Positions 626-63,797 are shown, numbered from the stretch's first letter. The stretch is DNA of 64,000 bases from a virus (IMGVR_UViG_3300050821_002540:9694-73693); one strand, 5' to 3'. Translations and numbers: made by a program. Notes: a model not told the origin generated them from the sequence alone.

Positions 626-655
626 TAGCCTTGCGGGGCCGGTAGCGGGTACGCT
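626..655 (+). promoter_or_regulatory. Phage promoter, -35 TAGCCT / 18 bp / -10 TACGCT
   Basis: Member of the repeated TAGnnn-N17/18-TAnnnT family, upstream of RBS AGGAGGCG and ORF 695. Confidence 0.65.
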
Positions 656-694
656 AGAGGGGTACCCCCGCGCGGGGGCAGAAGGAGGCGGAAA

Positions 695-1411
695 ATGACC
701 AGGCCAACAACAGAAGAGTTCAGAATCGAGGTTCCGGGCAAGTTCAGGAAGGGGACAGCCTACCTTGACCTTGAGACAGTAAAGGTGTCAACTTACAATG
801 CCTCAAGAAATAGGGGCCTGAATAGCGACTTCATCATGCAGAATGGCGAGTCGCTGAAGAACCGCTGGTCCATCGCAATGTACGGCGTTGCCCTGGATGG
901 CGGCATCGTGCTCAGCGACAACGGCCTGAATGAGCCGGCAAACATTCAGGGTCTCGGTAACATACTGACTGGATGGAATGGTGGTGCTGCCTCTGGCGGT
1001 TTCATGTCCGGGCCAATCAATGAGGTGGCGTACGCAGCGACTCGCGAGTTTGACGAGATGGTTGCCAAGGGGCGCTTTACCAATGCCCGCCGTGCTCATG
1101 AGCTAGAGCCATTCTTCCCGGCTGTTCCTGGGGCTGACAAGGTAGCATGGCGTAACCTTGGCGGCAAGATTCCTGATCACATAAGCAGGTACCGCAGCCT
1201 TGATACTCGTAGCGCTATGGTACCGCACCACATTTCAAGAGGCAGTTACGAGCTTGTAACGGTCCACCTGCTCCGTGATGTTGTCCAGCTCATTATGTGG
1301 GATGGAATGCCAGACTGGAAATGCTGGGGATGGTGTGAGCGTGTAATGAATGATTTCGAGTTCGCAGAGAAGCAGGTCTTCGGTGATGAACAGGAGCGAA
1401 ATGGGAATTAG
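695..1411 (+). CDS. Putative RNase H-like (DEDD/RNase_H_2-type) exonuclease
   Basis: N-terminal YLDLET acidic motif, central FD and C-terminal H..RDV..L resembling ExoIII. Confidence 0.45.
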   Translation: MTRPTTEEFRIEVPGKFRKGTAYLDLETVKVSTYNASRNRGLNSDFIMQNGESLKNRWSIAMYGVALDGGIVLSDNGLNEPANIQGLGNILTGWNGGAASGGFMSGPINEVAYAATREFDEMVAKGRFTNARRAHELEPFFPAVPGADKVAWRNLGGKIPDHISRYRSLDTRSAMVPHHISRGSYELVTVHLLRDVVQLIMWDGMPDWKCWGWCERVMNDFEFAEKQVFGDEQERNGN

Positions 1412-1538
1412 GCCAGGAGCAGAAGAGACCAAGGACGGCAAGAAAGGTGAGAACAGCCCAGGTACCAAGCCGAAGGACCTGCCCCAGGTTCCACAGCCAA
1501 AGGGCAAGTTACGGGCGGAAAAATAACTCGGGCAATGC

Positions 1539-1567
1539 TAGCTTTGCGCCCGCGTACGCGGTAGGCT
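1539..1567 (+). promoter_or_regulatory. Phage promoter TAGCTT-N17-TAGGCT
   Basis: Same hexamers and spacing as the sites at 28142 and 28865. Confidence 0.75.
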
Positions 1568-1607
1568 AGGCGTAGGCCGCCTAGCGGCGGCCAGTCAGGA
1601 GGCGAAA

Positions 1608-1850
1608 ATGAGCGACCACACCAGCGTCATAGTGTCGGTACTGCCCGACTGTGACTTCACTCACGAGAAGCCGGTCAAGGCAAAGTACGACGGCAAGACC
1701 AAGATGGGGCCGTGGGCGAACATGTGCCAGTCCCACTTCGACCAGAACGGCATCGGCCTGGGTCTCGGCCGGGGCCAGAAGCTGATCATCAAGGACAAGG
1801 ACAGCGACGATGGCGCCAGGGCTGAGGAACTGGACGGCACTAACCCGTAG
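1608..1850 (+). CDS. Conserved-looking phage hypothetical protein
   Basis: RBS AGGAGGCGA; motif CD...YDGKT..GPWA.MC..HF...G.GLG.GRGQ. Confidence 0.75.
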   Translation: MSDHTSVIVSVLPDCDFTHEKPVKAKYDGKTKMGPWANMCQSHFDQNGIGLGLGRGQKLIIKDKDSDDGARAEELDGTNP

Positions 1851-1920
1851 CTGGTAGCTGCCCGACAGGCTGGGACTCCCCGCCCAGCCTGTCGGGGAAC
1901 GTCCAGTACAAGGAGGAAAG

Positions 1921-2127
1921 ATGCCACCCACCGGAATCTCGATTGCCATGAAGTTCTTCGGCAAGCGCACCATGCCTGACGGCAAGGAGCAGCGACTGTC
2001 CGAGTTCAAGGAGGAATGGGACGGACTGCTGGTGGACCACGTCCCCGGCACGCCGGTCCGGGATGAGCACCGGGTGGTGCAGCACGCGATCATTGCGGGC
2101 ATCGAGGATGGCAGCTTCACCTACTGA
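1921..2127 (+). CDS. Hypothetical protein
   Basis: RBS AAGGAGG; GC3-rich codons. Confidence 0.7.
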   Translation: MPPTGISIAMKFFGKRTMPDGKEQRLSEFKEEWDGLLVDHVPGTPVRDEHRVVQHAIIAGIEDGSFTY

Positions 2128-2203
2128 CCTGGCACGCGTGGTGGCCAGCCTCCTGTGAGGCGAAGGGCGCAGGTAGTGACGCCTGTGCCTGTCACGTTAA
2201 AGC

Positions 2204-2275
2204 AGAGGGTCGTATGAGGCAAGTACGGGTGGGCTGATCCCCCGCCAGGTGTGGGTTCGAATCCCACCCCTCTCA
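2204..2275 (+). tRNA. Atypical or pseudo tRNA, GAT in anticodon position
   Basis: T-arm GTGGG-TTCGAAT-CCCAC; acceptor AGAGGG/CCCTCT; D-stem CGTA/TACG; anticodon stem GTGGG/CCCGC with loop CTGATCC (non-purine at 37). Confidence 0.45.
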
Positions 2276-2289
2276 CGAAAGGAGCAGTC

Positions 2290-2562
2290 ATGAGCAAGCC
2301 ACAGGTAGTAATTGTCCGCAAGGACAAGAAGATCAGGCACAAGGTGCTGCACGCAGCAGCGTTCGCCGTAACCGGCGGGGCAAGCGGCATCGTCACGGCG
2401 GCCGAGGCAGCCAGTCACGCGCAGTACAATGCCAGGACTCGGCAGCTCCAGGAGCAGTCCAGTCCCCGTCCGGCCCAGGTTAGCAAGGCAAAGGCAGTAG
2501 TTGGCCTTGTCTGCCTCAGCATCATTGTGCTGTGCATCATCATCGCAATCGCGGTGGGCTGA
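2290..2562 (+). CDS. Membrane protein
   Basis: RBS AAAGGAG before ATG 2290; hydrophobic C-terminal helix. Confidence 0.6.
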   Translation: MSKPQVVIVRKDKKIRHKVLHAAAFAVTGGASGIVTAAEAASHAQYNARTRQLQEQSSPRPAQVSKAKAVVGLVCLSIIVLCIIIAIAVG

Positions 2563-3077
2563 TGCCTGCGATTCCACTAGTTATCTACCAGCTGGTGGAA
2601 GCTAGAATCGCCTTGAAGTTCGAGATCAAGCACGGTCACGGGCCGACAAGAGCAGTCAACTCCAAGAGCATAATCCCATGGCTGTACAAGTACTACATTA
2701 CCGAGGTGTGTCAGGCACGGTACAGCCAGGAGCACAAGATCAAGGCGTACAATGACCTTAACAAGTATATGACAGATCACGGGATGGATGATAGGCCACT
2801 ATGACCGAGGGCAGGGGAACAGGCTACCAGGAACTGTACTACGAGATCATAGCACTAGTCAATGATGGCGTGCTTGGCAATGAAAGCCCGCCAACTCCAA
2901 ATTACTGGCACTGGCCAATTCGTGAGCCGGAAAGGCTCCCGGAGAAGTTTCAGAAGTGGATACCACTAGGGGAGGTGCGATGGTAGTGTCACTAGCAATA
3001 ATTGGTACTTTTCTCGTCGGCGTTGCTTTTGGCGCATTCATTGCAGTAATAGCAATCATGAATGCGGACAAGCGGCC

Positions 3078-3470
3078 ATGAGCTGGGATGTCACTCTGTA
3101 CCAGGTACACAAGATCACTAACTGTCCACACTGTGGTCTTCCACTTCCGGTTCCGCGCGAGGAAGAGGAAGAGGTAAACTGGTGGAACTACACACATAAC
3201 ACCAGCCCAATGATCTATGAAGCCCTGAAGCAGGAAGGCTTCGAGCTTCCTGAGGGCAAGAACTGGTGGCAACATCTTGACGGTATGAACGGTCATGCTG
3301 GCGTGGCATACCTCAGTATTATCATCGGGCAGCTTGAGCTTAACCCACACCATTACAGACTCATGAACCCAGATAATGGCTGGGGTGACTATGACTCACT
3401 ACTCGCCACTCTCTGTTCAATGCGTGACGAGCCAGTCAATAAAGATTCCAGATGGCATGTGAGTGGGTGA
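3078..3470 (+). CDS. Phage hypothetical protein
   Basis: CPHCG, NYTHN and NPDNGWGDY motifs typical of a phage hypothetical family. Confidence 0.7.
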   Translation: MSWDVTLYQVHKITNCPHCGLPLPVPREEEEEVNWWNYTHNTSPMIYEALKQEGFELPEGKNWWQHLDGMNGHAGVAYLSIIIGQLELNPHHYRLMNPDNGWGDYDSLLATLCSMRDEPVNKDSRWHVSG

Positions 3471-3645
3471 ATAATGTACTGGCAGGTAAGGGCGAGCTTT
3501 GCCAATAGTGGCGGCATCATGACGTTTGGCCTGGAGGCAGACAATCGCATCGGGGCCGAGCTGCTAGCATTCGACAGGATGCCACCTGGCGTCTGTGTGC
3601 TTGACGTGACGGCGATAGATGCGACGAAACTCAGAGTAGCAAAAG

Positions 3646-3675
3646 TAGATAATGGCGACTCTGACCCGGTAGGCT
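3646..3675 (+). promoter_or_regulatory. Phage promoter TAGATA-N18-TAGGCT
   Basis: Family member; followed by RBS AGGAGGCGA. Confidence 0.6.
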
Positions 3676-3714
3676 TAGCGTAGCGTCGCGAACGCGGCGA
3701 AAGCAGGAGGCGAG

Positions 3715-4014
3715 ATGGGATTTATGTACCTTCACCTGAAGTCGGATGACCAGGGGAAGATTCACGCAACGGTACAGCCCGATGGCACGCTACCGTTTGT
3801 CACTCTAGGGTCGGAAAACACCCGTTGGTCTGGGCGGCCGTTCGCTGTCTTCCAGATCGAGAGCTTTCAAGGCCTGACGTCAATCGATACCAGGGACCTG
3901 GAGCTTGAGGTCATCAACAGGCTCGGGGAAGATGGCCTGCGCTCACGGCTGGCCAGCGAGCTTTCAACGAATGACCTGCTCGGGATGCTTCGTGACCGCA
4001 TCCCTCCCGCGTAG
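3715..4014 (+). CDS. Hypothetical protein
   Basis: RBS AGGAGGCGAG. Confidence 0.65.
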   Translation: MGFMYLHLKSDDQGKIHATVQPDGTLPFVTLGSENTRWSGRPFAVFQIESFQGLTSIDTRDLELEVINRLGEDGLRSRLASELSTNDLLGMLRDRIPPA

Positions 4015-4022
4015 GAGGCGAA

Positions 4023-4994
4023 ATGGACATCGACAGCGTACTGCGGAAAGTGCACGGTCTGATCGCAAAGGCTGAGCATCCGAGTACGCCACCCAAAGAG
4101 GCGGCTGAGGCTCAGCGTATGGCTGACGCCCTCATGTACAAGTACAAGGTTAACCGGGTCCAGGCTGACAAGGCGGTCCCTGTTGCCCAGCGGATGAAAG
4201 CGGACAAGGTCGAGATTCCGCTTGTTGAAGACCCATCTCTTGTCGGGTATATGGCAGCACTAGCCAGGTCCGTTGCCAGGCACTGCGACTGTCGTATCCG
4301 CGAGTATTCAACCTTCCGCGCGGACGGCTGGCATTCCAGGATCTACGGGTACCAGTCTGACCTTAGTTATTACCAGATCCTCTATGCCGAGCTTCGCCTG
4401 CAGATGGTAGGGGCACTCCGTCCCAAGTATGATCCGGCGAAGTCCATCGACTTGAATGCCTACCTCATGCACAATGCCGGCATGAACTGGTTCGACATGG
4501 CCCAGATGGAGGGCTGGAGGCAGGTTCCGCCGGAATTTGGCGAGCCAAAGGTCATGTACATCAATGACCACACTGGCCAGCGTCAAAAGTGGTCTGATGC
4601 CGTAGGTAAGTTCAAGGACGGGTACAAGCGCGAGATTGAGCTACGTGGCGAGCCTTGGATGCAGATCCCGCCTGGCGGTATGAACACGTTCAGGGTCAAT
4701 GCTGCCAATGGCTATGTTGTCCGCATAGAACAACGTCTCGCCAGGATTCGTGAGGGCCGGGAGGTAGGCACCACTATTGCCCTTCTCAATGACGCGGTTG
4801 ATGCCCTGTTCAAGGAAGATAATCCTGAGCTATACAAGCCCATCGAGTCATCAGCACCGAAAGGCAGGCGCACTCGCGCCCCAAAGGTCAGGCATATTCC
4901 GTACAGCGCACAGGGCTATGAGTCTGGCGTGCGCCAGGCCAATGCCGCAGCCCTTGACCCATCCCCGTCGCACACCCCCAGGAAGGAGCTGTGA
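4023..4994 (+). CDS. DUF2786-domain protein
   Basis: N-terminal VLRKVHGLIAKAE..ST...EA..A...A..LM.KY signature. Confidence 0.75.
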   Translation: MDIDSVLRKVHGLIAKAEHPSTPPKEAAEAQRMADALMYKYKVNRVQADKAVPVAQRMKADKVEIPLVEDPSLVGYMAALARSVARHCDCRIREYSTFRADGWHSRIYGYQSDLSYYQILYAELRLQMVGALRPKYDPAKSIDLNAYLMHNAGMNWFDMAQMEGWRQVPPEFGEPKVMYINDHTGQRQKWSDAVGKFKDGYKREIELRGEPWMQIPPGGMNTFRVNAANGYVVRIEQRLARIREGREVGTTIALLNDAVDALFKEDNPELYKPIESSAPKGRRTRAPKVRHIPYSAQGYESGVRQANAAALDPSPSHTPRKEL

Positions 4995-5227
4995 TGGACC
5001 CTATCAAGGCAGCTATCGCAGCCAAGATCCAGACGTACCTGACGGATGATGTCAGTTACAAGTTTCCTCACCTTCCCATCGAGAAGATTGAGTTCAGTGC
5101 TGTCGATAGCCTGAACACCCAGGTCCGCGTTGTCACCGTGGGCCAGGGAATCCGCTACTTCACGGTGCAGTTGCGGGAGAACCTCTAGCCATCGTAGTGC
5201 CACAACAACAACCAGAAGGGTCAGCCA

Positions 5228-5877
5228 TGACTGACGACACCTCCACAACCACCATCAACAGCGACGAGGCCGGCAGCGGCCCGCTCGACCTGTCCAGGCC
5301 GGTCAGCCGTGACCGGTACATGAACACCATCACGGGCCTGTACCAGTTCTTCGAGGGCGAGCTCAAGCCAAGGAATTCCTGGTGCAACGAGCGGTTCCGC
5401 TACTTCGAGGAGCTCATTCCAGAGCTGGTCGTTGACCGGAGCAACCGGCACTACACCGCCGAGCTGGACTTCACCAGTGTGCCCGAGGATGCCGACTACG
5501 TGGCCCGGCTGCGTGACACCAGGGGCAAGTTGCTCTGGTACGCCAGCTCCACAATCATCAGCCTATCTCAGACCAACGAGGCACTCCAGGCGGCCGGAAT
5601 GCCTGGGTACAAGGCGGAGAATTCCGGAACCCGCATGTCCCTCGAACTCGACAACATCAGGATCACCGTCGCAGCCAGTACCTCGAACGAGGCAAGGGTG
5701 TGGATTCAGGACCACCTTACCGACTTCCTCACGCGCATGATCGATGGGAAGGGCCCAATGGACACCGACCTGTACGTCCCTGGCTCCATCACCTTCGGCG
5801 ATCCCGAATACATCCACACGGCTAGCCTGCCGTCTGTTGACGTCAAGGACACGATCCGTCCCGGCTTCATCGGCTGA
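5228..5877 (+). CDS. Hypothetical protein
   Basis: Long ORF with strong GC3 bias; start uncertain (ORF track 5197). Confidence 0.6.
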
Positions 5878-5960
5878 CCCCCGGCCCCTGAGCGTCACGT
5901 CTGGCTGGTACTCGCCTCCCGGCCAGGCGTGGCGCTGAAGGACCGACAAGAAAGGAAAAC

Positions 5961-6281
5961 ATGAAGTTCTCACCACGCAACAAGGGCCTTATTGGTGGCC
6001 TACTGGCCGGAGCAGCTCTTACTGCAACGCTCCTAACATCCTGTGGAAATGGAACACCGCAGCTCGATGACCTTCAGAACGTCCCGCCATCCTACCCCAA
6101 CTACGTCGCCAACCTCATCAATGTCAGCGGCTTCCCGAACGTTACGATGCTCTGCTACGACGGCGCAGGCTTCGCGACAACCACACGCGACGCGGCGGGT
6201 GCTGTAACCCTGGTGCCTGAGTGGAGTGCCTTCTGCGAGAAGCAGATCGGGAAGCAGGCAACTCAGGGAGGCCAGCCCTAA
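5961..6281 (+). CDS. Putative lipoprotein
   Basis: Signal peptide ending in lipobox LTSC. Confidence 0.7.
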   Translation: MKFSPRNKGLIGGLLAGAALTATLLTSCGNGTPQLDDLQNVPPSYPNYVANLINVSGFPNVTMLCYDGAGFATTTRDAAGAVTLVPEWSAFCEKQIGKQATQGGQP

Positions 6282-6300
6282 AACTCAGCTTTGCAAACCC

Positions 6301-6329
6301 TAGACTTCAGGCGCTTGCGCCGGTAGACT
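6301..6329 (+). promoter_or_regulatory. Phage promoter TAGACT-N17-TAGACT
   Basis: Family member; downstream hairpin and RBS AGGAGGCGA. Confidence 0.7.
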
Positions 6330-7223
6330 AGGGGTAGCGCCCCGGCCGGGGGAATGATAGACTCCTGAAAAGTGAGGAACCCTGGCCGGGGCCAGTGCTA
6401 GGAGGCGAAATGAAGTGTGGTAGCTGCAGGGACAGCCACAAGACTGTCGATGAGGTAAGAGACTGCTACAAGCAGAAGAACTTCGTGCCGCTCACGACTG
6501 TGCACGATGGCAAGAACGGCCAGTATGAGCTGCTCCAGAAGCTCCTGGCTGAGCGCGACATGGCTCCGCTCCCTCCGTACGATCACGTCGCGAACACAAT
6601 AAGCAAGAGCGACGCGGGTGAGGCAATCGCTCTCCTCATCGACAACGTGCCCAAGTCCGACGGCAAGTGCGATGACGACTGGGAGGGTGAGTTATGTCTG
6701 AGGGCACTCTCAGGGAAAGGTACCTGGCCAGCCAGACAAAATACAACCGCAGCTACAAAGGGGCGGCTCGGTACAAGCGGTATGAGGCAAAGCATCCCGA
6801 GCGTGCTCAGGCATGGAGCGAGCTCATGCAGATCAAGGCGAGGCGGCGGTTATGCTTTATGTCGCATTTGAATGCGTCCTGATCATTATGACGGCGAATG
6901 AGCTTTGTGCGCCCTCATACATGGCCGAGTACACTGCAGCCAAGTTCGGTGTTGCAATGATACTCATCATGATCAGGGAGATGCAATGACAGTCGATGAA
7001 GCCATTGAGGAAATTACTCGTGCATCAGTAATCTGTACCGATGTAGACCTATGGCGTAGTGAGCTTGAAACTATCCTCAAGGCCGTCCGCTCGCGCGCAG
7101 TTCTCGATGCACAGGCAAGCATGGTTGCCGCATTTACCTGTCCGGAACATCACGGCAGGCACGAAATTCCTACCGATCAGGTAGGGAATATCCAAGGACC
7201 CGTTTCACCTTGAAGGGAATGCC

Positions 7224-8069
7224 ATGGAAACCACTCAGACAGTCCTGCTCAGCCATCTCCACCCGAACCCAGCCAACCCCCGCGTGGAAGCTGGGGATGT
7301 AACTGATCTTGCCCTTTCAATCAGGGAACAGGGCATAGTACATGACATCCTTGTCCGTCCCTCTCCTGAATTTGGAGTGGGCCACTTCGTAATTGAGGAT
7401 GGATTCCGGCGCTGGGTGGCGGCCGAGGGTAACGCGAGGATGGGGCTAGGTCCTGAGACAGTTCAGGTACGCATCCGGTCGCTGAAGCCAGGCGAGAATT
7501 ATGCCGTGCGCGAGGTTGTTACATCACTCGTAACAACAATCCATCGTACTGACCTCAGGGCAATGGAGAAGGCACACGCATTCGAGGCCCTGATGAGGGA
7601 GACCGGCAAGAACCAGTCGGAAGTTGCCAGGATGATTGGCGTGAATTCCAGTACGGTAGGTCGGTACCTTTCACTTCTGGAGCTAGCGCCACAGGCACAG
7701 AAACGAGTGTCCGATGGAACACTCAGCGTAGAGGACGCAATAGATGCGGTTATTAAGCATCGAGCAAAGGCAAGGAAGGACAAGGGACAGGCTGCAGTTG
7801 ACCCTGGCTGGGAGCCACTCTACCTCGCGAAGACGCACCCTCTTGCAAAGAAGGCTCGAACAATGTGCGATGCCAGGGAGCATAATAATCGCCGTCGCCT
7901 AGATGGCGTAGCCTGCGGGCAGTGCTTCGAGACTGTTATACGTCAGGACCAGAGCACAGTAGACAGGATGGAGTACAATGAGGCTTTCAAGAATGCCGGA
8001 CTCAGCGTCCCATTCACCGCTCCAATCTTCCTGACCGGCGAGGATGCCAGCAAGAATGGACAGCCATGA
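7224..8069 (+). CDS. parB: ParB/RepB/Spo0J-family protein
   Basis: PNPANPR, LALSIREQGIVHDILVRP, DGFRRW (GxRR), then HTH QSEVARMIGVNSSTVGRYL. Confidence 0.9.
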   Translation: METTQTVLLSHLHPNPANPRVEAGDVTDLALSIREQGIVHDILVRPSPEFGVGHFVIEDGFRRWVAAEGNARMGLGPETVQVRIRSLKPGENYAVREVVTSLVTTIHRTDLRAMEKAHAFEALMRETGKNQSEVARMIGVNSSTVGRYLSLLELAPQAQKRVSDGTLSVEDAIDAVIKHRAKARKDKGQAAVDPGWEPLYLAKTHPLAKKARTMCDAREHNNRRRLDGVACGQCFETVIRQDQSTVDRMEYNEAFKNAGLSVPFTAPIFLTGEDASKNGQP

Positions 8070-8196
8070 GGCCGCACAGGTTTAATCCTGACCAGCGCGT
8101 CTCGACTGGTGAGATTTGCGTGTGCGGAGGGTCAAGAAACTACCGGGCACATCAGCCTTGGTGGTGGCTCATTCTGAACAGGAAGAAGTGGTGGAG

Positions 8197-9003
8197 ATGA
8201 AGGACAACGTATACATCGTGACGCGGGACCGGCTCGACAACCTGGAGAAGATCATACCACGCTGGCTGGAACAGTACTTCTATGTCACACTGGTAATCGA
8301 ACATTCCGAGTACATGAAGCACGATGCCCTCATCCGTGGCATGGGCGTTTATGATGATATTGCAATAATCAGCCCAAAGGCGGAAAATAAGGGCATCGGT
8401 CATGCCCGGAAGTATGCAGTTACAAATGCCTGCCTTCGCGGGCTGCGGTCATTTATTATGTCTGATGATGATCTCCGTCCGCACAAGGACTCGGTGATGG
8501 CCGACCTGGTAAAAGAAGCTGAAAAGCCAAATGTCCTTGGCATCGGGGCGACAAGGCCGCTACATGACAGGTTCTCGCACAACATGACGAGGGACCGGGA
8601 TGATGTCATTATATGTCCTGGTGGCTGGGGCATGCAGGTCTTTGCGCTGAACGTCAGGAACACAGTCGATGTCGGCAACTTCAACCCTCGCCTTGACTGC
8701 TGGGGCGAGGATCACGAGCTGATGCGTGACGGGATTGTTTGTGGCTTCCCCTGGCTCGTACACTGTGGAGTGAAGTGTGAGCCTATCGGGGTGCGCTATG
8801 ATCCTGGTGGCCTACACTCGTACATCGGCAAGGGTAACAGGTCAGAGCGCGAGTTGGAGTGTCGTAAGCTCATCTATGAGCGCTGGGGGAATTACGTAAG
8901 CAAGCCTGACAAGAGGCCGCGTACAGCATGGGCCAGAATGATGGATGAATACATTCCTAACTGGCGTAGCAAGTCAGCAATCCACGGCGGTGAATGGCAG
9001 TAG
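8197..9003 (+). CDS. TET-associated-type (TAGT/GREB1-like) GT-A glycosyltransferase
   Basis: VYIVTRDR; GIGHARKY; FIMSDDD; GEDHEL; adjacent to ParB. Confidence 0.65.
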   Translation: MKDNVYIVTRDRLDNLEKIIPRWLEQYFYVTLVIEHSEYMKHDALIRGMGVYDDIAIISPKAENKGIGHARKYAVTNACLRGLRSFIMSDDDLRPHKDSVMADLVKEAEKPNVLGIGATRPLHDRFSHNMTRDRDDVIICPGGWGMQVFALNVRNTVDVGNFNPRLDCWGEDHELMRDGIVCGFPWLVHCGVKCEPIGVRYDPGGLHSYIGKGNRSERELECRKLIYERWGNYVSKPDKRPRTAWARMMDEYIPNWRSKSAIHGGEWQ

Positions 9004-9029
9004 ACTCCAGCGATCCTGTAAGGTATACT
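9001..9029 (+). promoter_or_regulatory. Phage promoter TAGACT-N17-TATACT
   Basis: Family member; RBS AGGAGGCGA downstream. Confidence 0.75.
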
Positions 9030-9068
9030 AGTTCTAGGGCCGTCCCCGGCCGCAGTAGGAGGCGAGAA

Positions 9069-9284
9069 ATGCCACAGTTCATTGTTACGGTTAAGCTCCA
9101 TCGACTTCCTGAACACGATCCAAGGAGCAAGAAGACGGGGCCGTGCCCGGTAAGCGGCGGCAACTGCACTGACGTTACCGGGGAGCACCACAGCTACCTG
9201 CAGGAAGCCGTCACGTCTGATGATGCCGCAAGAATTGCTCGGGAGCAATGGACTCACGTCACCCGAGTCGAGCAGGTGTCATGA
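9069..9284 (+). CDS. Hypothetical protein
   Basis: RBS AGGAGGCGAG before ATG 9069. Confidence 0.65.
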   Translation: MPQFIVTVKLHRLPEHDPRSKKTGPCPVSGGNCTDVTGEHHSYLQEAVTSDDAARIAREQWTHVTRVEQVS

Positions 9285-10120
9285 TGCCAACGTACGAATA
9301 TCATTACAATACGTACGAGGAAGCAATGAAGGCTGTCGATGTGGCGGTAGAGGAAACGCTCAGTGACAATCCACACCTAAAGGCACAGGAAGACGATATC
9401 TTCCATGATGTAGTACAGGCCATAATGCCTGACTGCACTCCAGAGGTGGAGGCCGAGATATCAAGGGTGACAGGAGTTCCCCGGCTGTGAAGATTGAAGT
9501 GTGGGTTAGTCCTGAAGGCGTACACCACCAGTATCAGGTCGGGTATCCGTGCTTCACGTGCGGTAATTCACATAGTGACCCGTCTGTTGAATTCATAGAC
9601 CAGGTAGCCGAGGCCATCCTATCCGAGACAGAGGGGGATCTGGACAAGGCAATAATTATAGCCGACATGGTCAAGTATGCGCTCCAGCGTAGGAGCATAC
9701 AGCAGCACGTATGGCCATCTATACCTATACCACTGACACACGAATACAGAATAGATTGGTGAAGGGGCCGTAATGAGGAATGGTGCCAGGGGATGGAAGG
9801 TCGATGAGACCATCACTGAGATCCCTGAAGAGGATAAGGGCAATGTTATCAGCCGGGATGACCCGGAGCCATCACGCAAGGATGACCCCACCTACTACAC
9901 AGGCCCGGCAGGCGGTGACTGATGTGACACTCAAGGAAACAAAGCTAGAGATTGAGAATACAATAAGGGTGAGGATTAAGGACAGGATGCCAGTTGCAGA
10001 CCTTGTTCTGCCACCCAACCCCATCAGCATCATAGTGGTAGGCAAGAGCGCCGACAACCTCCAGGCCCGCATAGTCTACCGGGACTGTGCCCCCTACTAC
10101 ATCAATGTGAGCAAGATACG

Positions 10121-12049
10121 TTGACAGTACAGATAAGAATTGACGGCAAGAGGATTCTTGCTATTGTTCCGTACAGGGGCGGCCGAGGGTCCATACAGGC
10201 AAAGCAGGTGCCTGGCGTTAAGGCAAAGTGGGACAAAGAAAAGTTTGTCGGATGGACCTACCCGCTCAGCCTAAATTCTTGCTATGCCCTCCGTCGTGTC
10301 TTCGGTGAGGAACTTGAGATCTCAGATGGCCTTGCTAAATGGGCACGTGCCGAGATCATCAAGAATAATACGCTTGAGGATTTCAGGGAAGAGGCGATTG
10401 CCAGCCAGACATTTGACCAGCTTGCGGAAGAGGCTCCGCAACTGTACCTTGCGATGGCGTCGCGGGAGTATCAGCTAGCAGGGACAGCATTCCTGGTAGC
10501 GGGTGGTCAAACGATACTCGGTGATGAGCCGGGACTAGGCAAGACACTGCAGGCACTAGGTGCTATCATCCAGAATGACGCAAAGACAATCCTCGTGGTG
10601 TGTCCTCGTACCGCAACACGTACAGTATGGGAACGCGAGACTGGTCGCTGGACTCCTAGCATAGCGACGTTTGTTGCTCAGGGAACACATGCCCAGCGTG
10701 AGGCTGTCATGAGCCGATTCTCAGACCATTCTGTCCTGATACCGGGGACACGAAAGATGCTCATAGTCAATACTGAGATGATTAGGGCAAAGAAGAGGGA
10801 AGTATGCCCGGAAGGGCTTGACCCCAAGTGGTGTGATGACAGGCCATTCGAGGCACGCGGCGATCACAGGCACCACTATGAGGTAGAGCCTGAATGGCCA
10901 TTCCTCAGCGAGCAGGCATGGGATGCAATAATACTTGACGAGTCCCACAACGCACTCGCGTCCACCGCCAACGTACAGAGCAAGAGGATTACCCTTGCCA
11001 GGCGCGGAGCCGTCAGGATCAGGAAGCGTCTCAGGAAGGGTGGACTAGCAGTAGCAGTCAGTGGGACGCCATTCCGGTCTGACCTAAGTAAGTCCTGGGG
11101 GACACTTAACTGGCTGAGGCCTGATGTGTTTAAGGGGTACTGGAGTTTTGCCGAACATCACTTCGGTGTTACATACAATGGCATCGCAAAAGTTGTTGGC
11201 AGGATCGAGGATGGCAGGCAGATTGTCGAGCCACTAGACCAGGAGGAATTTGACCGTGCGCTACGTCCATACTACCTCGCGCGGAGAAAAAGTGACGTGG
11301 TCCCTGACCTACCACCAATCATATATGCGGGCACTCCACCAGAAGGATTCCCCGATGGGCCATGTTACGTACGGCTTGATATGGAATCCAAGCAAGCTAA
11401 GGCGTATCGCCAGATGGAGGCTAACTCGGAGGCTGACCTCAATGGTGGTAGAGTACTTGCTAACGGAGTCCTTGCCGAGATCACTCGACTGAGGCAGTTT
11501 GCAAGCAGCTACGCACGGATAGCCGGGCCGGGTCACGTCATACCGGACACCCCAAGCAACAAGATCGACTGGATCTCTGACTTCATGTATGAGCGTGAGG
11601 GTGGAGATGGCAAAGTTGTTATTGCCAGTAGCTTCACACAGCTAGTCGAGATGACAGCGGCTATGCTCCGTAAGGACAAGTGGGAAGTCCTCACGCTTAC
11701 CGGGGCTACCAGCGACAAGAACAGAGCCATCCTTCAGCGAAGGTTCAATGACCAGGATGATCCTCTCCGTGTAGTTGCCATAAATACCAAGGCTGGCGGT
11801 GAGGCAATAACGCTCGACGCTGCCGATGACATGATAGTCATTGACATGCCCTGGACCAGCGATGAGTTCAAGCAGCTAGAGAACCGCATACACCGCGTCT
11901 CCCGCATACATCAGGTAACAGTCTACCGCCTGATAAGCAATGACACCATCGAGGAATGGATCGCTGACATGTCAGAGGAACAGCGAGCAATCCTTGAGGC
12001 TGCTAGCCCACGCAAGCTCAGCGAGATGATCAGAGAGGCACGAAGATGA
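10121..12049 (+). CDS. SNF2-family helicase
   Basis: DEPGLGKT (motif I), IILDESH (II), SGTP (III), GEAITL, Q.E.RIHR (VI). Confidence 0.92.
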   Translation: MTVQIRIDGKRILAIVPYRGGRGSIQAKQVPGVKAKWDKEKFVGWTYPLSLNSCYALRRVFGEELEISDGLAKWARAEIIKNNTLEDFREEAIASQTFDQLAEEAPQLYLAMASREYQLAGTAFLVAGGQTILGDEPGLGKTLQALGAIIQNDAKTILVVCPRTATRTVWERETGRWTPSIATFVAQGTHAQREAVMSRFSDHSVLIPGTRKMLIVNTEMIRAKKREVCPEGLDPKWCDDRPFEARGDHRHHYEVEPEWPFLSEQAWDAIILDESHNALASTANVQSKRITLARRGAVRIRKRLRKGGLAVAVSGTPFRSDLSKSWGTLNWLRPDVFKGYWSFAEHHFGVTYNGIAKVVGRIEDGRQIVEPLDQEEFDRALRPYYLARRKSDVVPDLPPIIYAGTPPEGFPDGPCYVRLDMESKQAKAYRQMEANSEADLNGGRVLANGVLAEITRLRQFASSYARIAGPGHVIPDTPSNKIDWISDFMYEREGGDGKVVIASSFTQLVEMTAAMLRKDKWEVLTLTGATSDKNRAILQRRFNDQDDPLRVVAINTKAGGEAITLDAADDMIVIDMPWTSDEFKQLENRIHRVSRIHQVTVYRLISNDTIEEWIADMSEEQRAILEAASPRKLSEMIREARR

Positions 12050-12629
12050 CCGATATGCGTAATGTCAGGAATGCTATCGCACGTGTGCGGTCAAACCTCA
12101 GGAACGTCGAGCATGAAGCCGTTCTTGGCAACAGTAATGGTGCGTTTGCCTCTGCCCAGGATGCCTGGCAGAATGCCTTTGACCTCATGCAGCTATTCGC
12201 CCTCACGGATGATGAGCTGGCAAAGGCAAAACCTGGAGCCAATGACCCGGAGACAAATTAATGTCAGATAGTGACGATAAGTTCCGCGAGTGGTTTGGTG
12301 CCAATGAGGGGAAACTCAGGCTTCCATGGAACACAGACTCACTCCGTGCTGCCTGGGAGGCCGGCAGGAAGTCGAGGGATAAGGAGATTGAATTTCTCCG
12401 AACGGTCACAGAACAGGGATGGGAATGACCTGGGAGACTGCTAATCCATGGGCCATTGTCGATATCGAGGCTCGGCCGCAGGTAGTTGTTACCAGGTATG
12501 AGAGCAAGGCAATGGCAACATGGTACCTCGGCTACCTACTTGCGCACGGGGCTGCGTCTACGCAGGCGAAACTCAGGCGCGGCGGGTACGGCATCGAGGA
12601 AAATTCTCGGAAGATGATGGCTGAAAAGG

Positions 12630-12658
12630 TAGCGTCAGCTCGCCGGATGGACTATACT
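12630..12658 (+). promoter_or_regulatory. Phage promoter TAGCGT-N17-TATACT, internal to ORF 12419
   Basis: Family member; RBS GGAAAGG and ATG 12716 downstream. Confidence 0.6.
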
Positions 12659-12715
12659 AAGGGTAACGCTAAGCCACGAACCACCAACGTAGAAAACAAG
12701 GGAAAGGTCACAACC

Positions 12716-13168
12716 ATGCCACCTCGCGGACGTAAGGGTGCTGCTGTTCCGGTCGAGCCAGAGGAAGTGCTTGAGGAAGAGAATGGTGCCGGCTTGTTCG
12801 ATCATCACCTGACCAAGGACCTCAGCCCTACGATGTCAACCTACGCGGACTGGTTCCACGCCAACGTAGCGGACATCGACCAGCTAGGCAAGGATGACCC
12901 GGCTCGACTGCTTGCCCTAGGCAGCACGCTGTACCCGCACTTCCAGAAGTCCCCGGAGAACCAGGCTGCCCGTGCAGAGCGAAAGGCTGCGCGTGCCGTC
13001 GCTGTCGAGCCTGAGCCCGAGCCTGAGCCTGAGCCTGTTGCTCAGCCTGCGCGCCGGGGCCGTCCCTCCACCAAGGCTGCGGCTGCGGCACCGGCTGCTG
13101 CTCCTGCAGCCAAGGCCCCCGCTCGTCGGCGCGGTGCCGCCCCGGCTGCGGCCGAGGCACCCTACTAG
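12716..13168 (+). CDS. Hypothetical protein with Ala/Pro/Arg-rich tail, possibly DNA-binding
   Basis: RBS and promoter; (EP)n repeat and RRGRP/AKAPARRR tail. Confidence 0.6.
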   Translation: MPPRGRKGAAVPVEPEEVLEEENGAGLFDHHLTKDLSPTMSTYADWFHANVADIDQLGKDDPARLLALGSTLYPHFQKSPENQAARAERKAARAVAVEPEPEPEPEPVAQPARRGRPSTKAAAAAPAAAPAAKAPARRRGAAPAAAEAPY

Positions 13169-13173
13169 AAAGC

Positions 13174-13475
13174 TCCTGTCCGGGGCGAAGTGACCGACCG
13201 GCTTGCCGCGTAGCCCGCAGGGGCATACGGTCTTCCCCGGACAGGACCAATGGTTGGAGCACCTGGATCACTGATCAGCTCCAGGTCCACGGAGGGCAGC
13301 ATGCGAGAGCCGTGCTTCCGGCAGGGGTCAAACCCCAAGCCCTCCACGCAGGCCGTGGGATCCCAAGGGTGTAGCGAGAACGGCTCTGGGTATTGGCGGT
13401 TCGATTCCGCCCCGCTACACCCACCTAAACGTCCAGCCCCTGGTGGCAACCATGGTCGGGTGCCGGGGGCTGGAC
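13174..13475 (+). ncRNA. Array of hairpins and truncated tRNA-like elements
   Basis: Stems 13174-13246, 13261-13286, 13291-13345, 13367-13422 (with T-arm GGCGG-TTCGATT-CCGCC) and 13431-13475. Confidence 0.45.
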
Positions 13476-13478
13476 CCA

Positions 13479-13548
13479 GGGGCGTTGGTGTATGGGTAGC
13501 ACGCTTAGGTTTGATCTAAGAGCACCAGGTTCGAGTCCTGCAGCCCCA
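13479..13548 (+). tRNA. tRNA-Gln(TTG), imperfect acceptor stem
   Basis: D-stem GTGT/GCAC; anticodon stem CTTAG/CTAAG with loop GTTTGAT; T-loop GGTTCGAGTCC; GGGGC/GCCCC acceptor. Confidence 0.7.
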
Positions 13549-13569
13549 CGGCCAATAACTGGAGGAACA

Positions 13570-13842
13570 ATGATGACATGGGGCCGTACGTACTGGCCGA
13601 TCTTCCTGGACATCTCCTCAATATGGGTGCTACTTGGCTTCGGAGTGCCCGAGGCAATAGCACTCATCAATCACAAGCTACATGTAGATGACACACTCTC
13701 CTACTATGCCCGTACCGAGCTACATATCAGTGTAGCGACAGCGGCTACGGCGCACACACTTGCATGGTACCTCTCATTCATCGTGTGGATGTCATTCGTC
13801 ATATTCATCACAGCCCACATCTGGTTCGACCAGTTCGGATAA
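13570..13842 (+). CDS. Membrane protein
   Basis: RBS GGAGG; two hydrophobic segments. Confidence 0.6.
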   Translation: MMTWGRTYWPIFLDISSIWVLLGFGVPEAIALINHKLHVDDTLSYYARTELHISVATAATAHTLAWYLSFIVWMSFVIFITAHIWFDQFG

Positions 13843-13952
13843 TGAAAGAAACTCGCCCACAGGGACCACCGTGTGTGAGCGGTGCGGAAGAACGGCTAGC
13901 CAGGATGCGATCGGCCAGGCGTGCCTAACTCGCGGCACCATGAGGGAGACAA

Positions 13953-14933
13953 ATGACTGGACTGCCACTAGTAACTACAACGTCTCGCTCGACGTTCCGG
14001 CGCTGCCCACAGAAGTGGGTATGGCGATTTGAGGATGGCCTAACTCAAAAAGGTGAGACCGCTGATGCCCTGTGGTTTGGTACTGGAGTCCATGAAGCTC
14101 TTGCTAAGTGGTACCTGAGGGGTGCGCGACGCGGGCCGCGACCTGCTGATACATTTGACAACTGGTGCTCCAATGAGATGCGCGAGATTCGTGCATCCCG
14201 CGAGGAATGGGAAGACCAGGCTAAGTATGAGGATGCTCTTGAACTTGGCATAGCTATGCTCGACAACTACATTCAAGAGTATGGTGCTGATGATAACTGG
14301 GACATAGTTGCGATCGAGCAGCCATTCAAGATTAGGGTGACCTGGCACGGTAAGCCGGTCGCCCTGTTCATGTCTACCTGGGATGGCGTCTACCGGGACA
14401 GGAAAGATGGCAAGCTCTACCTCCTGGAACATAAGACAGCAAGCCAGATCACCCTCCCCTACCTTGCACTTGATGATCAGGCAGGAGTGTACCTGGCCGT
14501 TGCTGAACAGTGGCTCAAGACCAAGAACATTATGAGGCAAAATGAGCACATCGCCGGAATCATGTACAACTTCCTCAGGAAGACAATGGGTGATGACCGG
14601 GATCGGAATGAAGGTGGAGCCTACCTAAACAAAGATGGCTCGGTAAGCAAGAAGCAGCCGCCACCACCGTTTGTCCGGAACCTAGTTGAGCGTGGCCCCG
14701 GCGAGAGCAGGACTCAGATGGAGCGACTAGCCAATGAGGTAGCTGTCATGAATGCTGTCCGAGACGGTACCATCCCAGTAACTAAGAGCACCACCAAGGA
14801 CTGCACATGGTGCGAGTTCTTTTATGTATGCACTCTCCATGAGCGTGGCAGTACCACTGCCTTCAATGAGTACGTTCGTCACGGCTTCACAAAGAAAAAT
14901 CCATTCGACCGTTACCAGAAGAGCGCAGGATGA
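13953..14933 (+). CDS. PD-(D/E)XK RecB/Cas4-like exonuclease
   Basis: S...FRRCP, FGTGVHEAL, WDGV, LEHKT, CTWCEF..VC. Confidence 0.88.
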   Translation: MTGLPLVTTTSRSTFRRCPQKWVWRFEDGLTQKGETADALWFGTGVHEALAKWYLRGARRGPRPADTFDNWCSNEMREIRASREEWEDQAKYEDALELGIAMLDNYIQEYGADDNWDIVAIEQPFKIRVTWHGKPVALFMSTWDGVYRDRKDGKLYLLEHKTASQITLPYLALDDQAGVYLAVAEQWLKTKNIMRQNEHIAGIMYNFLRKTMGDDRDRNEGGAYLNKDGSVSKKQPPPPFVRNLVERGPGESRTQMERLANEVAVMNAVRDGTIPVTKSTTKDCTWCEFFYVCTLHERGSTTAFNEYVRHGFTKKNPFDRYQKSAG

Positions 14934-18761: not shown

Positions 18762-18781
18762 CGAGGTAGGAGGGAATCGTA

Positions 18782-61210: not shown

Positions 61211-61755
61211 GTCATGTCGCCTTGTTCGTCAGAGTCAATAACATACTGGACTCCGAGGCCCTGGCGGGCCGGTGGCGCTGTCCGCTGTGGGTAGGCCCCA
61301 AGCTCATCAGCCGCCTGCCGGTACAGGTCCAGCCTAGCCCGGTACAGGTCGCGATGGGCGCGGCTCCATCCAAGCCCCTGCTCACGCCACTCATTCAGCT
61401 GGGCGTCAATGTCATCAATGGCCTGCTGGTACTCCGCGAGCCGGTTCTGCTTCCTGGAGATCCACATACCGGCCGTCGTAATGTCCAGGGTGCCCTCAAG
61501 GGCATGGGCAACTTCCTGGATCTCTTCCTGGTGGCGCTCCTGGAACACCCTCACCTGGATCGCCGTCAGCCCGTACAATGGCGCGAGGCTGGTGGGTTCC
61601 CATTCACCCATAGCAAGATCCCTGATAAGGGCGAGCTTCTGACGTCCCCGGATGTCTACTGGTAGTCTTGTCGGGAGGGTAGCGGGCACGTCCGTGGATG
61701 GCACTGCCCTGAGCGGCACTTTCCGCCCTGGGCCTCTGCTCTTTCCATCGGTCAT
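61207..61755 (-). CDS. Putative terminase small subunit
   Basis: Helical protein upstream of TerL; WI..K..RLA.YQ, A.ELG..P.R and V.YVI pattern. Confidence 0.6.
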   Translation of the reverse strand: MTDGKSRGPGRKVPLRAVPSTDVPATLPTRLPVDIRGRQKLALIRDLAMGEWEPTSLAPLYGLTAIQVRVFQERHQEEIQEVAHALEGTLDITTAGMWISRKQNRLAEYQQAIDDIDAQLNEWREQGLGWSRAHRDLYRARLDLYRQAADELGAYPQRTAPPARQGLGVQYVIDSDEQGDMT

Positions 61756-61780
61756 GCCCGCCACCTGCTCCCTGCGGGCA

Positions 61781-61809
61781 ACTATACCCTACTCCGGGGC
61801 CGTGCGCTA
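61781..61809 (-). promoter_or_regulatory. Promoter TAGCGC-N17-TATAGT on the minus strand for the packaging/structural operon
   Basis: Reverse-complement family member about 25 bp upstream of the terS start. Confidence 0.6.
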
Positions 61810-62519
61810 GTCCCCGGCTGGTGGCTTAGTACTGCGCCTACGCGCGGGCGCGGGCGTGCCCGCGCGAGGCTGTGCCTTCCTGGGTGCACGGACACGCTTC
61901 GGGGGTGGGGGCGGGGGTGGTGGGCTGGGCATAGTCCTGGGGACTGGTAGTGCCAGCTGCCCAAAGCCCAGGAGGGCCTGGCAGGGACAGGCCCGGCAGA
62001 TGCACCTGCCCTTTGGCCTCTTGTTCTCGGGCTTGTCGCGTTCTTCCTCGGACAGCCTGGCCCGGAGTAGGATGCTGCCCTCATTGTGCCAGCAGTCAGC
62101 ACACATGCACCAGCATGCTGTCATGCCCTCATCCCTGGTCGTTGTAATGCACAGGCTGTCATGGTGCGGCATTACTTCCTCCTGACATCTATGTGCGTAA
62201 CGTCAAGTGACTTGAACTGGGGGAATGTTCCCATTTCGCCGGGACCCGGAAGAATCCTGGTGAGTCGTGCCTCGATGGCACTGACCACCTGTGAGCCTGT
62301 ATTTCCGGTAACCCTTACCCTGACCTCGATCGTAGCCTCATACTCATACAGAGCTGGCATGGAGCCTCCTCATGTGGCGGCGGGCGGTCTTCTCGTGGCG
62401 GAAGCGCCTGTGCGCTGTCACGCACTGTGGACAGTACCAGTATGTACCGCCCTTCTGTGGCTGGTAGTACAGGAAGTCAACGAGGCGCTTCATCATGACC
62501 GGTGTCCATGCTCCCCCGG

Positions 62520-62729
62520 TCATGACTGCTCCAGGAGGCTTTCCCTGGGGACGCCCAGGACCTGCGCGAGCTGGTGCAGTGAGCCTGGCTGGGGAGTGGC
62601 CTCGCCAGTGAGCCACTTACCGAGGGTCCTGCTTTCCACCCCGAGCTTGTCTATCAGGGTGACGGGTGAGATGTTCTTCCTTCGCATGACCTGGAACAAG
62701 ATCTCCGGGTCAATGTACTGCTGGGGCAT
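62520..62729 (-). CDS. XRE/Cro-like HTH regulator
   Basis: S...L..KLGV...TL.KW..GE..P....L..LA.VLGV. Confidence 0.85.
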   Translation of the reverse strand: MPQQYIDPEILFQVMRRKNISPVTLIDKLGVESRTLGKWLTGEATPQPGSLHQLAQVLGVPRESLLEQS

Positions 62730-63185
62730 TAGCTGTTCCTTTCCCGGTCCTGGAACAGGATCCAGAGCTTCCCGTCCTCACTGACATGGATGCCAGTGAC
62801 CAGGCCGCCCGCCGCCGTCGGGGCCAGATTGGTAACCTCAGGAGTGCCCTCTGGGTTGTAGAACGCTGCTCCCCACATGGCCTCCATGAGCTCCTTGTTG
62901 TTCACCGGAAGAACCTCCAGAGAAGGAAGAGAAATACTACTGCGCCTATGAAGGTGGTGACGAGGACGAATGCCTTGCCCCATTTATCCAGCTTGTCCAT
63001 GTTCCTGTCCTGCTGGCTTCGTGACGATGACATTGAAGCCTCCATCCTCTCCATTGCACGGTTCCTGATGTACCCTGTGACCCTTGCCTGCCCTGCGGGC
63101 CGCTGATGCTACCCTCTTAACTGTCGCGTCTGCCTCTGCCCTGGTCCTGACCCAGGTGCGGATTACCTCAGTGCGGTTGTTGTCC

Positions 63186-63359
63186 TTACTGGCGATCCGG
63201 GTCAAGGAGCACCTCCTTCTCATACTCGGCTGCCTTGTCCTGGGCATCCTGAAGATCGTCTGGGTCAAGGCGGACAAGATCTACCTGTCCCCAGTAACGG
63301 TCATAGCAGGACAGGTAGCCAGCAAGGAAGTCCTTACCAGCGTTCGATGTGGGCTCCAT
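63186..63359 (-). CDS. 57-aa hypothetical protein, first gene of the - arm
   Basis: RBS AAGGAGG; ATG 63359 to TAA 63186; not in the ORF track. Confidence 0.6.
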   Translation of the reverse strand: MEPTSNAGKDFLAGYLSCYDRYWGQVDLVRLDPDDLQDAQDKAAEYEKEVLLDPDRQ

Positions 63360-63383
63360 GGAGCCTCCTTCCCTACGCTCCCG

Positions 63384-63413
63384 AGTATACCGCCTTAAAG
63401 GCGGAAACGCCTA
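63384..63413 (-). promoter_or_regulatory. Promoter TAGGCG-N18-TATACT on the minus strand
   Basis: Family member; CA/TG-free over 63361-63418. Confidence 0.65.
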
Positions 63414-63768
63414 GTCGTCATGACGGATGTGAGATTCATAACGACGCGGAGCGTCGGATTGCAAGACACTTTCATAACGTGTGGCAGGCGGAAAGAAGAG
63501 TGGGGAGGGAGGGGCCGAAAATCGCGGGACTTTCGGGGGCCTCCTAGGCGGGCCGGAGAGGCCCCGTAGGCGGCCCGAACGGGCCGACCCTACCTCGGGT
63601 ACCGAGCCGGGGGCCTACGCGCCCCGTAGGGGCCTTCTCGCCCCGTCTAGAGGGTACTCCGCCCCGTCCGCCGCGACCGGGCCGAAGCCGGGTCGCCTAC
63701 GCCTAGTCGCTACGCTCCGTAGCCGAGCGGTAATTTAAAGTTACTGTGTAGACGACCGTAGACGAGTA

Positions 63769-63797
63769 TAGGTTCTAGGCCCTTAGGCGGTTAGGCT
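63769..63797 (+). promoter_or_regulatory. Promoter TAGGTT-N17-TAGGCT
   Basis: Family member; followed by hairpin and RBS AAGGAGGCGA. Confidence 0.7.

Follow-up and report, generated by a model that had tools for sequence, protein, structure and literature searches.

A repeated promoter–leader cassette and local avoidance of the CA/TG step in the genome of a putative soil actinophage

The phage record IMGVR_UViG_3300050821_002540 (73,693 bp, IMG/VR) contains about 15 copies of one promoter–leader cassette, which are located at operon starts and coincide with long runs of DNA that are free of the CA/TG dinucleotide step. The genome is available as a metagenome assembly only. We analyzed a window of 64,000 nucleotides corresponding to bases 9694–73693 of the record, the termini of which overlap by 97 bp; coordinates are those of the window unless the genome is mentioned. 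Judged from the sequence, it is fairly probable that this one type of cassette serves the host RNA polymerase as the start of every operon, whether early, replication, lysis, or late. The CA/TG-free voids at the promoters are best seen as partly structural, arising from the promoter motif, a GC stem, and a leader free of NUG, and partly as one face of a wider CA/TG ban. A preliminary description of the window had noted a promoter family with such voids; this observation is confirmed and is stronger than was stated there.

The cassette consists of TAGCTT, a spacer of 17–18 bp, GGTAGGCTAG, a TAG near the expected start, a GC hairpin, and CAG(T)AGGAGGCGAgaaATG, in this order. When the sites are aligned on the -10, TAGCTT occupies positions -23 to -18, with T, A, G, C, and T present in 11/15, 10/15, 11/15, 9/15, and 12/15 sites, respectively. 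A CAATGC element is often found upstream of this -35 box, the spacer is GC-rich, and GG is located at -2 and -1. The -10 is TA(G/T)(G/A)CT followed by A and G, and the TAG lies at +11 to +13 from the -10 T. Within the TAnnnT hexamer, T0 and A1 are present in 14 of the 15 sites, and T5 is also present in 14/15. A matrix made from the family sites, which spans -24 to +17 around the -10 and was applied at a score of at least 8, gave 20 matches in the genome compared with 1.1 in dinucleotide shuffles. Every strong match has the orientation of the gene block around it and precedes an open reading frame (ORF) with a strong ribosome site. Members outside the window are located at genome positions 3569, 3969, 6411, and 8318 on the + strand and 3908 on the - strand. 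The same matrix also gave an excess of matches in three of the related phages (G001–G005; the phage under study is designated G000), with 10 matches in G004, 7 in G003, and 7 in G002, where 0.65, 1.2, and 0.6 were expected, respectively.

Because the -35 box was part of the matrix, the test was redone with the -10 alone (GGTA..T.G). TAG was recovered at -23/-24 in 10/21 matches in G000, 5/17 in G003, and 6/19 in G004, whereas about 0.2 is expected per offset; G001 and G002 had too few matches to test. Part of the lineage therefore conserves the TAG box at the -35 position as an element in its own right. The consensus in the relatives consists of the box TAGCGC and the -10 GGTAGGATAG, and many of their promoters are leaderless. 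A scan of the viral collection with TAGCTT-N15-GGTAGGCT gave only single matches among those listed, which is consistent with chance. In window positions 1–20000, canonical TTGACA/TATAAT promoters were not in excess. T-tailed intrinsic terminators were not in excess in the same part of the window either; the likely terminators are GC hairpins without a T run, such as that at 292–330.

The preliminary description had listed 13 sites of the form TAGnnn-N17/18-TAnnnT as a single promoter family. All 13 were found again at their positions and 12 belong to the family, but the site at 26423 falls below the matrix threshold and lacks both the GG and the downstream TAG. The underlying family is real, but the loose pattern is weak, with 42 matches in the window, and the specificity therefore resides in the extended motif. 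The -35 box had also been explained as TTGACA with its TG and CA removed, which holds for no more than the two TAGACT sites; this phage has the consensus TAGCTT, and its relatives have TAGCGC. A sigma-B/F-type reading (GTTT ... GGGTA) was rejected, since the relatives keep TAGC without a T-run.

The cassette at 1539–1610 (+) is near the consensus, with caatgcTAGCTTTG, GGTAGGCTAG (-10 at 1562–1567), TAG at 1573–1575, a 7-bp hairpin (z -2.9), CAGTCAGGAGGCGAAAATG, and ATG at 1608; its score is 40.5. The first cassette (626–697, +) has TAGCCT at 626–631, an 18-bp spacer, GGTACGCTAG with the -10 at 650–655, a 5′ hairpin CCCCC-gcgc-GGGGG, GAAGGAGGCGG, and ATG at 695. TAGATA, an 18-bp spacer, GGTAGGCT (-10 at 3670–3675), a hairpin, GCAGGAGGCGAGATG, and ATG at 3715 make up the cassette at 3646–3717 (+). 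The TAGACT box occurs twice on the + strand, at 6301–6412 with GGTAGACTAG (-10 at 6324–6329), a longer leader, a gene starting at 6410, and a score of 42.6, and at 9001–9071 with GGTATACTAG (-10 at 9024–9029), a hairpin, CAGTAGGAGGCGAGAAATG, and ATG at 9069. The operon behind the former includes a ParB-like gene and a gene resembling a TET-associated glycosyltransferase (TAGT). The member at 12630–12718 (+; TAGCGT, ACTATACTAA, -10 at 12653–12658, ATG at 12716) is weaker and has an unstructured leader, which contains seven CA and no TG before the ATG. At 18732–18784 (+), TAGAGC and GCTATAATCG, a near-canonical -10 at 18756–18761, are followed by a short leader and the ATG of ThyX at 18782. Two further + strand cassettes carry GGTAGGCTAG: that at 28142–28230 has the partly palindromic gaaagcCTAGCTTTC and its -10 at 28165–28170 (score 35.3), and that at 28865–28919 has CTAGCTTTG, its -10 at 28888–28893, a short leader with TAGGAGGCGAGAATG, and ATG at 28917 (score 36.9). 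The genome-end cassette (63769–63858, +) contains TAGGTT, GTTAGGCTAG (-10 at 63792–63797), a 12-bp hairpin, and GAAGGAGGCGAG; the gene behind it is devoid of ATG, GTG, and TTG and has a candidate ATC start at 63856. On the - strand, the member at 61755–61809 (TAGCGC, GGTATAGTTG, -10 T at 61786) precedes the late (structural) block, and that at 63357–63413 has TAGGCG, GGTATACTCG (-10 T at 63389), GGAAGGAGG, and ATG at 63359. The non-member site (26423–26483, +) has no matrix match and is part of a stretch upstream of the lysis genes that is rich in hairpins and poor in CA/TG. This stretch (26269–26480, 212 bp, about 4 CA/TG) contains no family promoter and could represent terminators or regulatory RNA.

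The ten CA/TG-free runs listed in the preliminary description were reproduced to within 1 bp (633–679, 1546–1592, 3663–3704, 6317–6355, 9018–9053, 12649–12675, 18749–18783, 26439–26480, 28150–28194, and 28874–28918). Further runs were confirmed at 63748–64000 and 63360–63419, and that at 61780–61803 spans just 24 bp. At the -10 the median run is 42 bp long, whereas the value for random positions is 9 bp (95th percentile, 24; Mann-Whitney p = 9e-10). Although no dinucleotide class is more frequent than CA/TG (14.8% of steps), its free runs are by far the longest of any class (253, 244, 147, 115, 108, and 105 bp); those of classes of similar frequency do not exceed 69 bp. The CA/TG density is 0.064 in promoter gaps, 0.128 in non-promoter gaps, and 0.151 in coding DNA, and the runs in non-promoter gaps are short. 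Equally common runs of this kind at random intergenic positions would have refuted the preliminary description, but intergenic DNA without a promoter is normal. Because coding and ordinary intergenic DNA are normal or high in CA/TG, the ban is local and selective; a purely mutational origin, such as a process resembling repeat-induced point mutation or CpG decay, was rejected on the same grounds.

To locate the depletion, each segment was shuffled separately, with coordinates relative to the -10 T. The region from -60 to -24 (59 CA/TG, 62 expected) and the spacer from -17 to -2 (17 and 20.8) are not depleted. The -35 box (0 and 11.7) and the -10 block (1 and 18.6) are depleted, but both are conserved motifs. 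The stretch from +8 to +30 contains 5 CA/TG where 26.6 are expected (P < 0.0002), and from +30 onward the DNA is not depleted (130 to +100, about 116 expected). The void had been regarded as an RNA polymerase footprint. However, the spacer and the DNA upstream of the -35 are not depleted, and the strongest sites have CAATGC just upstream of the -35; the non-trivial part of the void is therefore the initial transcribed stem-loop, not the entire polymerase footprint. Promoters of the same class in the relatives have CA/TG directly adjoining the -10, as in gtgcatacGGTAGG.

A hairpin is present at +2 to +19 in 8 of the 11 leaders, with a stem composed almost entirely of G and C; any CA in one arm of such a stem would be paired with a TG in the opposite arm. 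In 9/14 + strand family sites of the genome, the sense strand downstream of the -10 contains no TG before that of the start ATG, whereas CA reappears earlier, within the conserved CAG. When all scored matches from five genomes are considered, an ORF of at least 40 codons begins at the first TG in 29/41 cases (26 of these 29 are ATG); the value at random positions, for any NTG, is 0.435. Much of the promoter void is explained by a GC stem together with the exclusion of upstream NUG.

Based on these features, the following arrangement may be proposed. A conserved TAGC(T/G)(T/C) box at the -35 position and a GC-rich spacer of 17–18 bp precede the extended -10 GGTA(G/T)(G/A)CTAG, which fits the actinobacterial form GnTAnnnTnG. 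The TAG 6–8 nt after the -10 would be the start site, with T at -1 and A at +1. The 5′-terminal G/C stem would stabilize the mRNA, and the ribosome site CAG(T)AGGAGGCGA would remain unpaired before the ATG. The CA/TG-free run would then be the sum of three parts, namely motif blocks that happen to be without CA/TG, a pure-GC stem, and the absence of UG from the leader up to the start codon. This sum would cover the run lengths, but it does not account for the non-transcribed stretches, an 848-bp terminal zone, and an island in a tail gene (see below).

The -10 TAnnnT in gene orientation and the spacing of 17–18 bp agree with a sigma-70 housekeeping promoter, but the -35 does not, because TAGCTT shares only T1 and G3 with TTGACA. 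GnTAnnnTnG is the Corynebacterium form of the -10, and TAG(G/A)(G/A/C)T is the Streptomyces form. The cassettes resemble actinobacterial SigA/HrdB-type promoters in the TAnnnT -10, the G residues two bases upstream and two bases downstream, the spacing, the leaderless starts in the relatives, and the strong AGGAGG ribosome sites. They differ in having TAGC(T/G)(T/C) in place of TTGACA, and in that the box is well conserved, whereas the usual -35 is poorly conserved. Sigma70_r2 had no match in the phage, the sole r4_2 match was the helix-turn-helix of the ParB-like protein, and no RNA polymerase was found among the large ORFs; the large proteins are the tape-measure protein and a 1,384-residue protein without assignment, the latter encoded in the tail-gene block. 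Because no phage sigma factor or polymerase was found and the same cassette precedes early, middle, lysis, late, and genome-end operons, the host holoenzyme would be the simplest reader.

Several points weigh against this arrangement. We infer both the start sites and the polymerase that uses the promoters from the sequence. The hairpin z-scores are mostly weak, because GC-rich shuffles fold well too. With an unbiased leader definition in G000, TG is found 23 times compared with 33.7 expected (p = 0.0065) and CA 44 times compared with 49 (not significant), so that the asymmetry is modest. In seven strong sites the spacer is CA/TG-free from -16 or -14; because the spacer is not transcribed, a rule at the RNA level cannot account for them. 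To our knowledge, the TAG box has no match among sigma-A -35 elements, and a dedicated factor may therefore be involved. It is possible, although we regard it with some doubt, that the box is not a -35 read by region 4 of sigma-A but the site of a phage activator, a repressor, or a sigma-retargeting protein that defines a phage-specific regulon. In addition to the poor agreement with TTGACA, the partly palindromic context of the box (CAATGCTAGCTTTG and GAAAGCCTAGCTTTC), its conservation at -23/-24 in G003 and G004, and the large number of small early proteins without assignment favor such a factor. However, the box is also found in front of the genome-end operon, presumably the earliest, whose transcription has to begin when no phage protein is yet present; moreover, no sigma-like protein was found in the phage, and palindromic sites are few.

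The wider CA/TG ban is most evident in the 848-bp terminal zone (genome 73195–end and 98–446; window part 63502–64000, no strand assigned). This zone contains 1 CA compared with 49 expected, 4 TG compared with 41.5, 51 TA compared with 20, and 140 CG compared with 102. It houses divergent promoters and one gene written without NTG, which extends from 63856 to 64000 in the window and on into L130:98–372 (about 150–160 codons) behind the GAAGGAGGCGAG ribosome site. The gene contains no ATG, GTG, or TTG anywhere and encodes no Met, Trp, Cys, or His; its GC content at third codon positions is 0.80, and ATC is the candidate start. Its homologue P0001 (142 residues, 64% identical) begins with Met, so that the terminal gene is real and has apparently given up the canonical start. 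The N-terminal part contains KPTAS repeats, which four 15-bp tandem repeats encode. An Atlas search with the P0001 protein gave no result, and no orthologous terminal zone was found by a DNA search of five closer relatives. A perfect 19+19 bp palindrome at L130:381–418 (GCGTAGGCCCTACGGCTAG / CTAGCCGTAGGGCCTACGC) closes the CA/TG-free zone; beyond it, L130:500–610 is CA/TG-rich and contains three copies of CAGGCAGACAGC and two of CAGGCAATTTTCAG. The palindrome and the repeats could be an origin or binding sites. An explanation by DNA curvature was rejected because the TA–TA spacing in the zone has no helical periodicity.

The ban also extends into other coding DNA. The tail-like protein encoded at 30060–32033 (-; 657 residues) has numerous tandem repeats of the LTDSGSGTxxLAV type. 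Within this gene, a 190-bp island (30588–30777, -; amino acids 418–481) is CA/TG-free apart from two CA/TG steps, and Leu and Val are encoded by CTA, CTC, GTA, and GTT and not by CTG or GTG, with the exception of one CTG. The relatives have CA/TG-free islands of 70–182 bp, several of which lie inside low-complexity coding linkers, and among the four relatives with whole records examined, G004 has the most long islands (at least 70 bp). A leader rule at the RNA level is insufficient for the terminal gene and these islands. As the sum of motif, stem, and leader leaves this wider ban unexplained, an agent that reads the CA/TG step would probably also act on the genome. In G004 (L114–L118), several islands start at a repeated motif, GAGCTCGCACGTACGG, for example at 6590–6620, 20640–20670, and 50200–50225, which suggests a second family of repeated intergenic elements.

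The preliminary description had proposed that the promoters were redesigned to stay unmodified. The voids are indeed non-random, whereas gene content, the relatives, the void anatomy, and phage F8 speak against modification as the mechanism; this interpretation is possible and weakly supported. In a specific form, the phage would hypermodify a base in the CA/TG step (e.g., T in TG converted to 5-hydroxymethyluracil and then glycosylated) and would keep promoters, leaders, and the first gene CA/TG-free for the polymerase, which we consider quite improbable. Precedents for such a pathway exist: Pbunavirus F8 and 14-1 carry a hypermodified T in the TG motif (PMC12191111), and the ParB-dependent phage T-dioxygenase 5mYOX176 prefers NTG, in pathways that often include glycosyltransferases and ParB (PMC13229309). 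The two-base step is the same here, the ban is strand-symmetric and overrides the start codon of the terminal gene, and a TAGT-family candidate with a DDD motif (8116–9003, +) adjoins the ParB-like gene (7224–8069). The score of the candidate itself (20.9 bits) is below the cut-off of 27.5 bits, but PF20691 is found in about 45 of 74 homologues, and together with the DDD motif this places it among the TET-associated glycosyltransferases. However, no Tet/JBP dioxygenase (PF12851) was found at E <= 10 in G000 or at E <= 1 in G001–G005, although divergent members could be missed. The ParB activator class of the pathway lacks a DNA-binding domain (PMC13229309), whereas the ParB-like protein retains HTH_ParB (E = 4e-12). 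The glycosyltransferase occurs only in G000 and G002 and the ParB-like protein only in G000, G003, and G004, so that the two are not inherited together. The glycosyltransferase does not track the islands either, since the complete genome of G004 lacks it and is nevertheless the richest in long islands. CATG (0.72) and TGCA (0.75) are under-represented in the genome, as expected of unprotected sites. The undepleted spacer and upstream DNA and the CA/TG beside the -10 in the relatives also disagree with modification. In the F8 control (NC_007810), the longest CA/TG-free runs (88, 81, and 77 bp) resemble low-complexity coding DNA and are no more extreme than those of other dinucleotide classes, and this phage with reported TG modification has no CA/TG-free regulatory zones. 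ThyX is uninformative on T modification because F8 carries it too. As far as sequence can tell, the evidence does not appear to point to a modification made by the phage.

Alternatively, an agent of the host or the environment might read the CA/TG step in double-stranded DNA, as a short-target nuclease or defence system or as a DNA-binding small molecule, and the first-needed DNA would have been purged. This explanation seems unlikely, although it agrees with many features of the ban. The avoidance applies symmetrically to both strands and is specific to this step, CA/TG being replaced by TA and CG; a whole gene is free of the step at the cost of Met, Trp, Cys, His, and an NTG start, whereas its homologue begins with Met; the tail-gene island uses the synonymous CTA and GTA codons; and islands recur in the relatives. 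The phage also evolves by site avoidance: CCCGGG (0 compared with 31 expected), CTCGAG (1 and 19), CCGCGG (2 and 17), and GCCGGC (15 and 43) are scarce genome-wide, and the avoidance of GC-rich 6-bp palindromes, shared by the relatives, is typical restriction-site avoidance. However, no agent of that kind is known, partial purging would give no protection with about 10,900 CA/TG steps elsewhere in the genome, and the purge of just about 45 bp per promoter is left unexplained. Little weight is given to an anthracycline as the agent, because daunorubicin reportedly favors CpG (PMC2536678), and CpG is enriched in the zones.

DNA purged under an outside agent would resemble the motif-poor leading DNA of T5 and T7. 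As in the T5 first-step-transfer region and the T7 leader with gene 0.3, a sequence feature has been cleared from a terminal block, here of about 0.85 kb, that carries promoters and a small early gene; "terminal" here refers to the end of the assembled record, and the physical genome ends may differ. Unlike in T5 and T7, the purged feature is a single dinucleotide step and not restriction sites, and the ban recurs at internal promoters.

Common descent, in which one CA/TG-free cassette was duplicated around the genome with no selection against CA/TG, is disfavored and in our view very improbable. The cassettes do share long blocks (the -35 box, the -10, the TAG, and the CAG–Shine-Dalgarno segment). 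Nevertheless, the hairpin sequences differ among copies and are all still CA/TG-free, the variable stretch from +8 to +30 is depleted, and the ban also holds in unrelated sequences, namely the terminal gene and the tail-gene island. Tentatively, a single selective force might be recorded in the voids at the promoters, in the 848-bp zone and its recoded gene, and in the island of the tail gene. It would be exerted in infected actinomycete cells by a reader of the double-stranded CA/TG step, whether modification enzyme, nuclease, or small molecule, and phages would keep their start-up circuitry free of the step, with TTG in the -35 changed to TAG.

Repeated cassettes are known from other phages, namely the promoter-early-stem-loop (PeSL) elements of T4-type phages and the start-associated sequences (SAS/ESAS) of Cluster K mycobacteriophages. 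These elements are also multi-copy conserved modules at operon or gene starts, which combine a promoter or ribosome-site motif with a stem-loop and are scattered in the early region. The sequences are different, however, and the present cassette joins promoter, start site, hairpin, and ribosome site in one module; a CA/TG ban has not been described for those elements. The family is a well-defined variant of an actinophage cassette. It defines promoters and leaders for a large group of soil actinophages that are uncultured, and its conserved -35 box other than TTGACA is a testable case. We judge the CA/TG ban to be weightier than the cassette, as it cost one gene its start codon and Met, Trp, Cys, and His, and we know of no published mechanism for it. 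A factor that reads a two-base DNA step would, if real, represent a new kind of phage–host interaction, for which the approximately 15 promoters would be small natural test sites.

The phage is lytic, siphovirus-like, and uncultured, and comes from soil; Megablast detected no close relative in the phage collection. The early, replication, and lysis genes are encoded on the + strand (1–30000) and run on from the genome-end promoter across the junction, and the structural genes are encoded on the - strand (about 30060–63360). The replication genes comprise a helicase, a DnaE-like polymerase with a PHP protein, an exonuclease, an AAA_24 protein, and ThyX, and a primase-polymerase gene is located outside the window. 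Lysis and structural genes include an Rpf-type transglycosylase, NlpC/P60, terminase, portal, protease, capsid, and tape-measure protein. Proteins related to the capsid protein belong to prophages of Streptomyces, Kitasatospora, Streptacidiphilus, Micromonosporaceae, and other Actinomycetota, and the polymerase shares 49% identity with its counterparts in Mycobacterium cluster D phages. Together with the Rpf-type transglycosylase and the NlpC/P60 domain of the lysis genes and the leaderless starts in the relatives (e.g., GGTATAATAGagctATG), these similarities point to an actinomycete host, which is probably a member of the Streptomycetaceae. A search against Rfam found two tRNAs and nothing else; the genes encode tRNA-Ile (GAU, reading AUC/AUU) at 2203–2276 and tRNA-Gln (UUG, reading CAA) at 13478–13549. 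ThyX (18782–19990, 402 residues) has an N-terminal extension of about 140 residues, and directly 5′ of its gene lies that of an FAD/NAD-binding protein of unknown function (17806–18615, phrog_8720).

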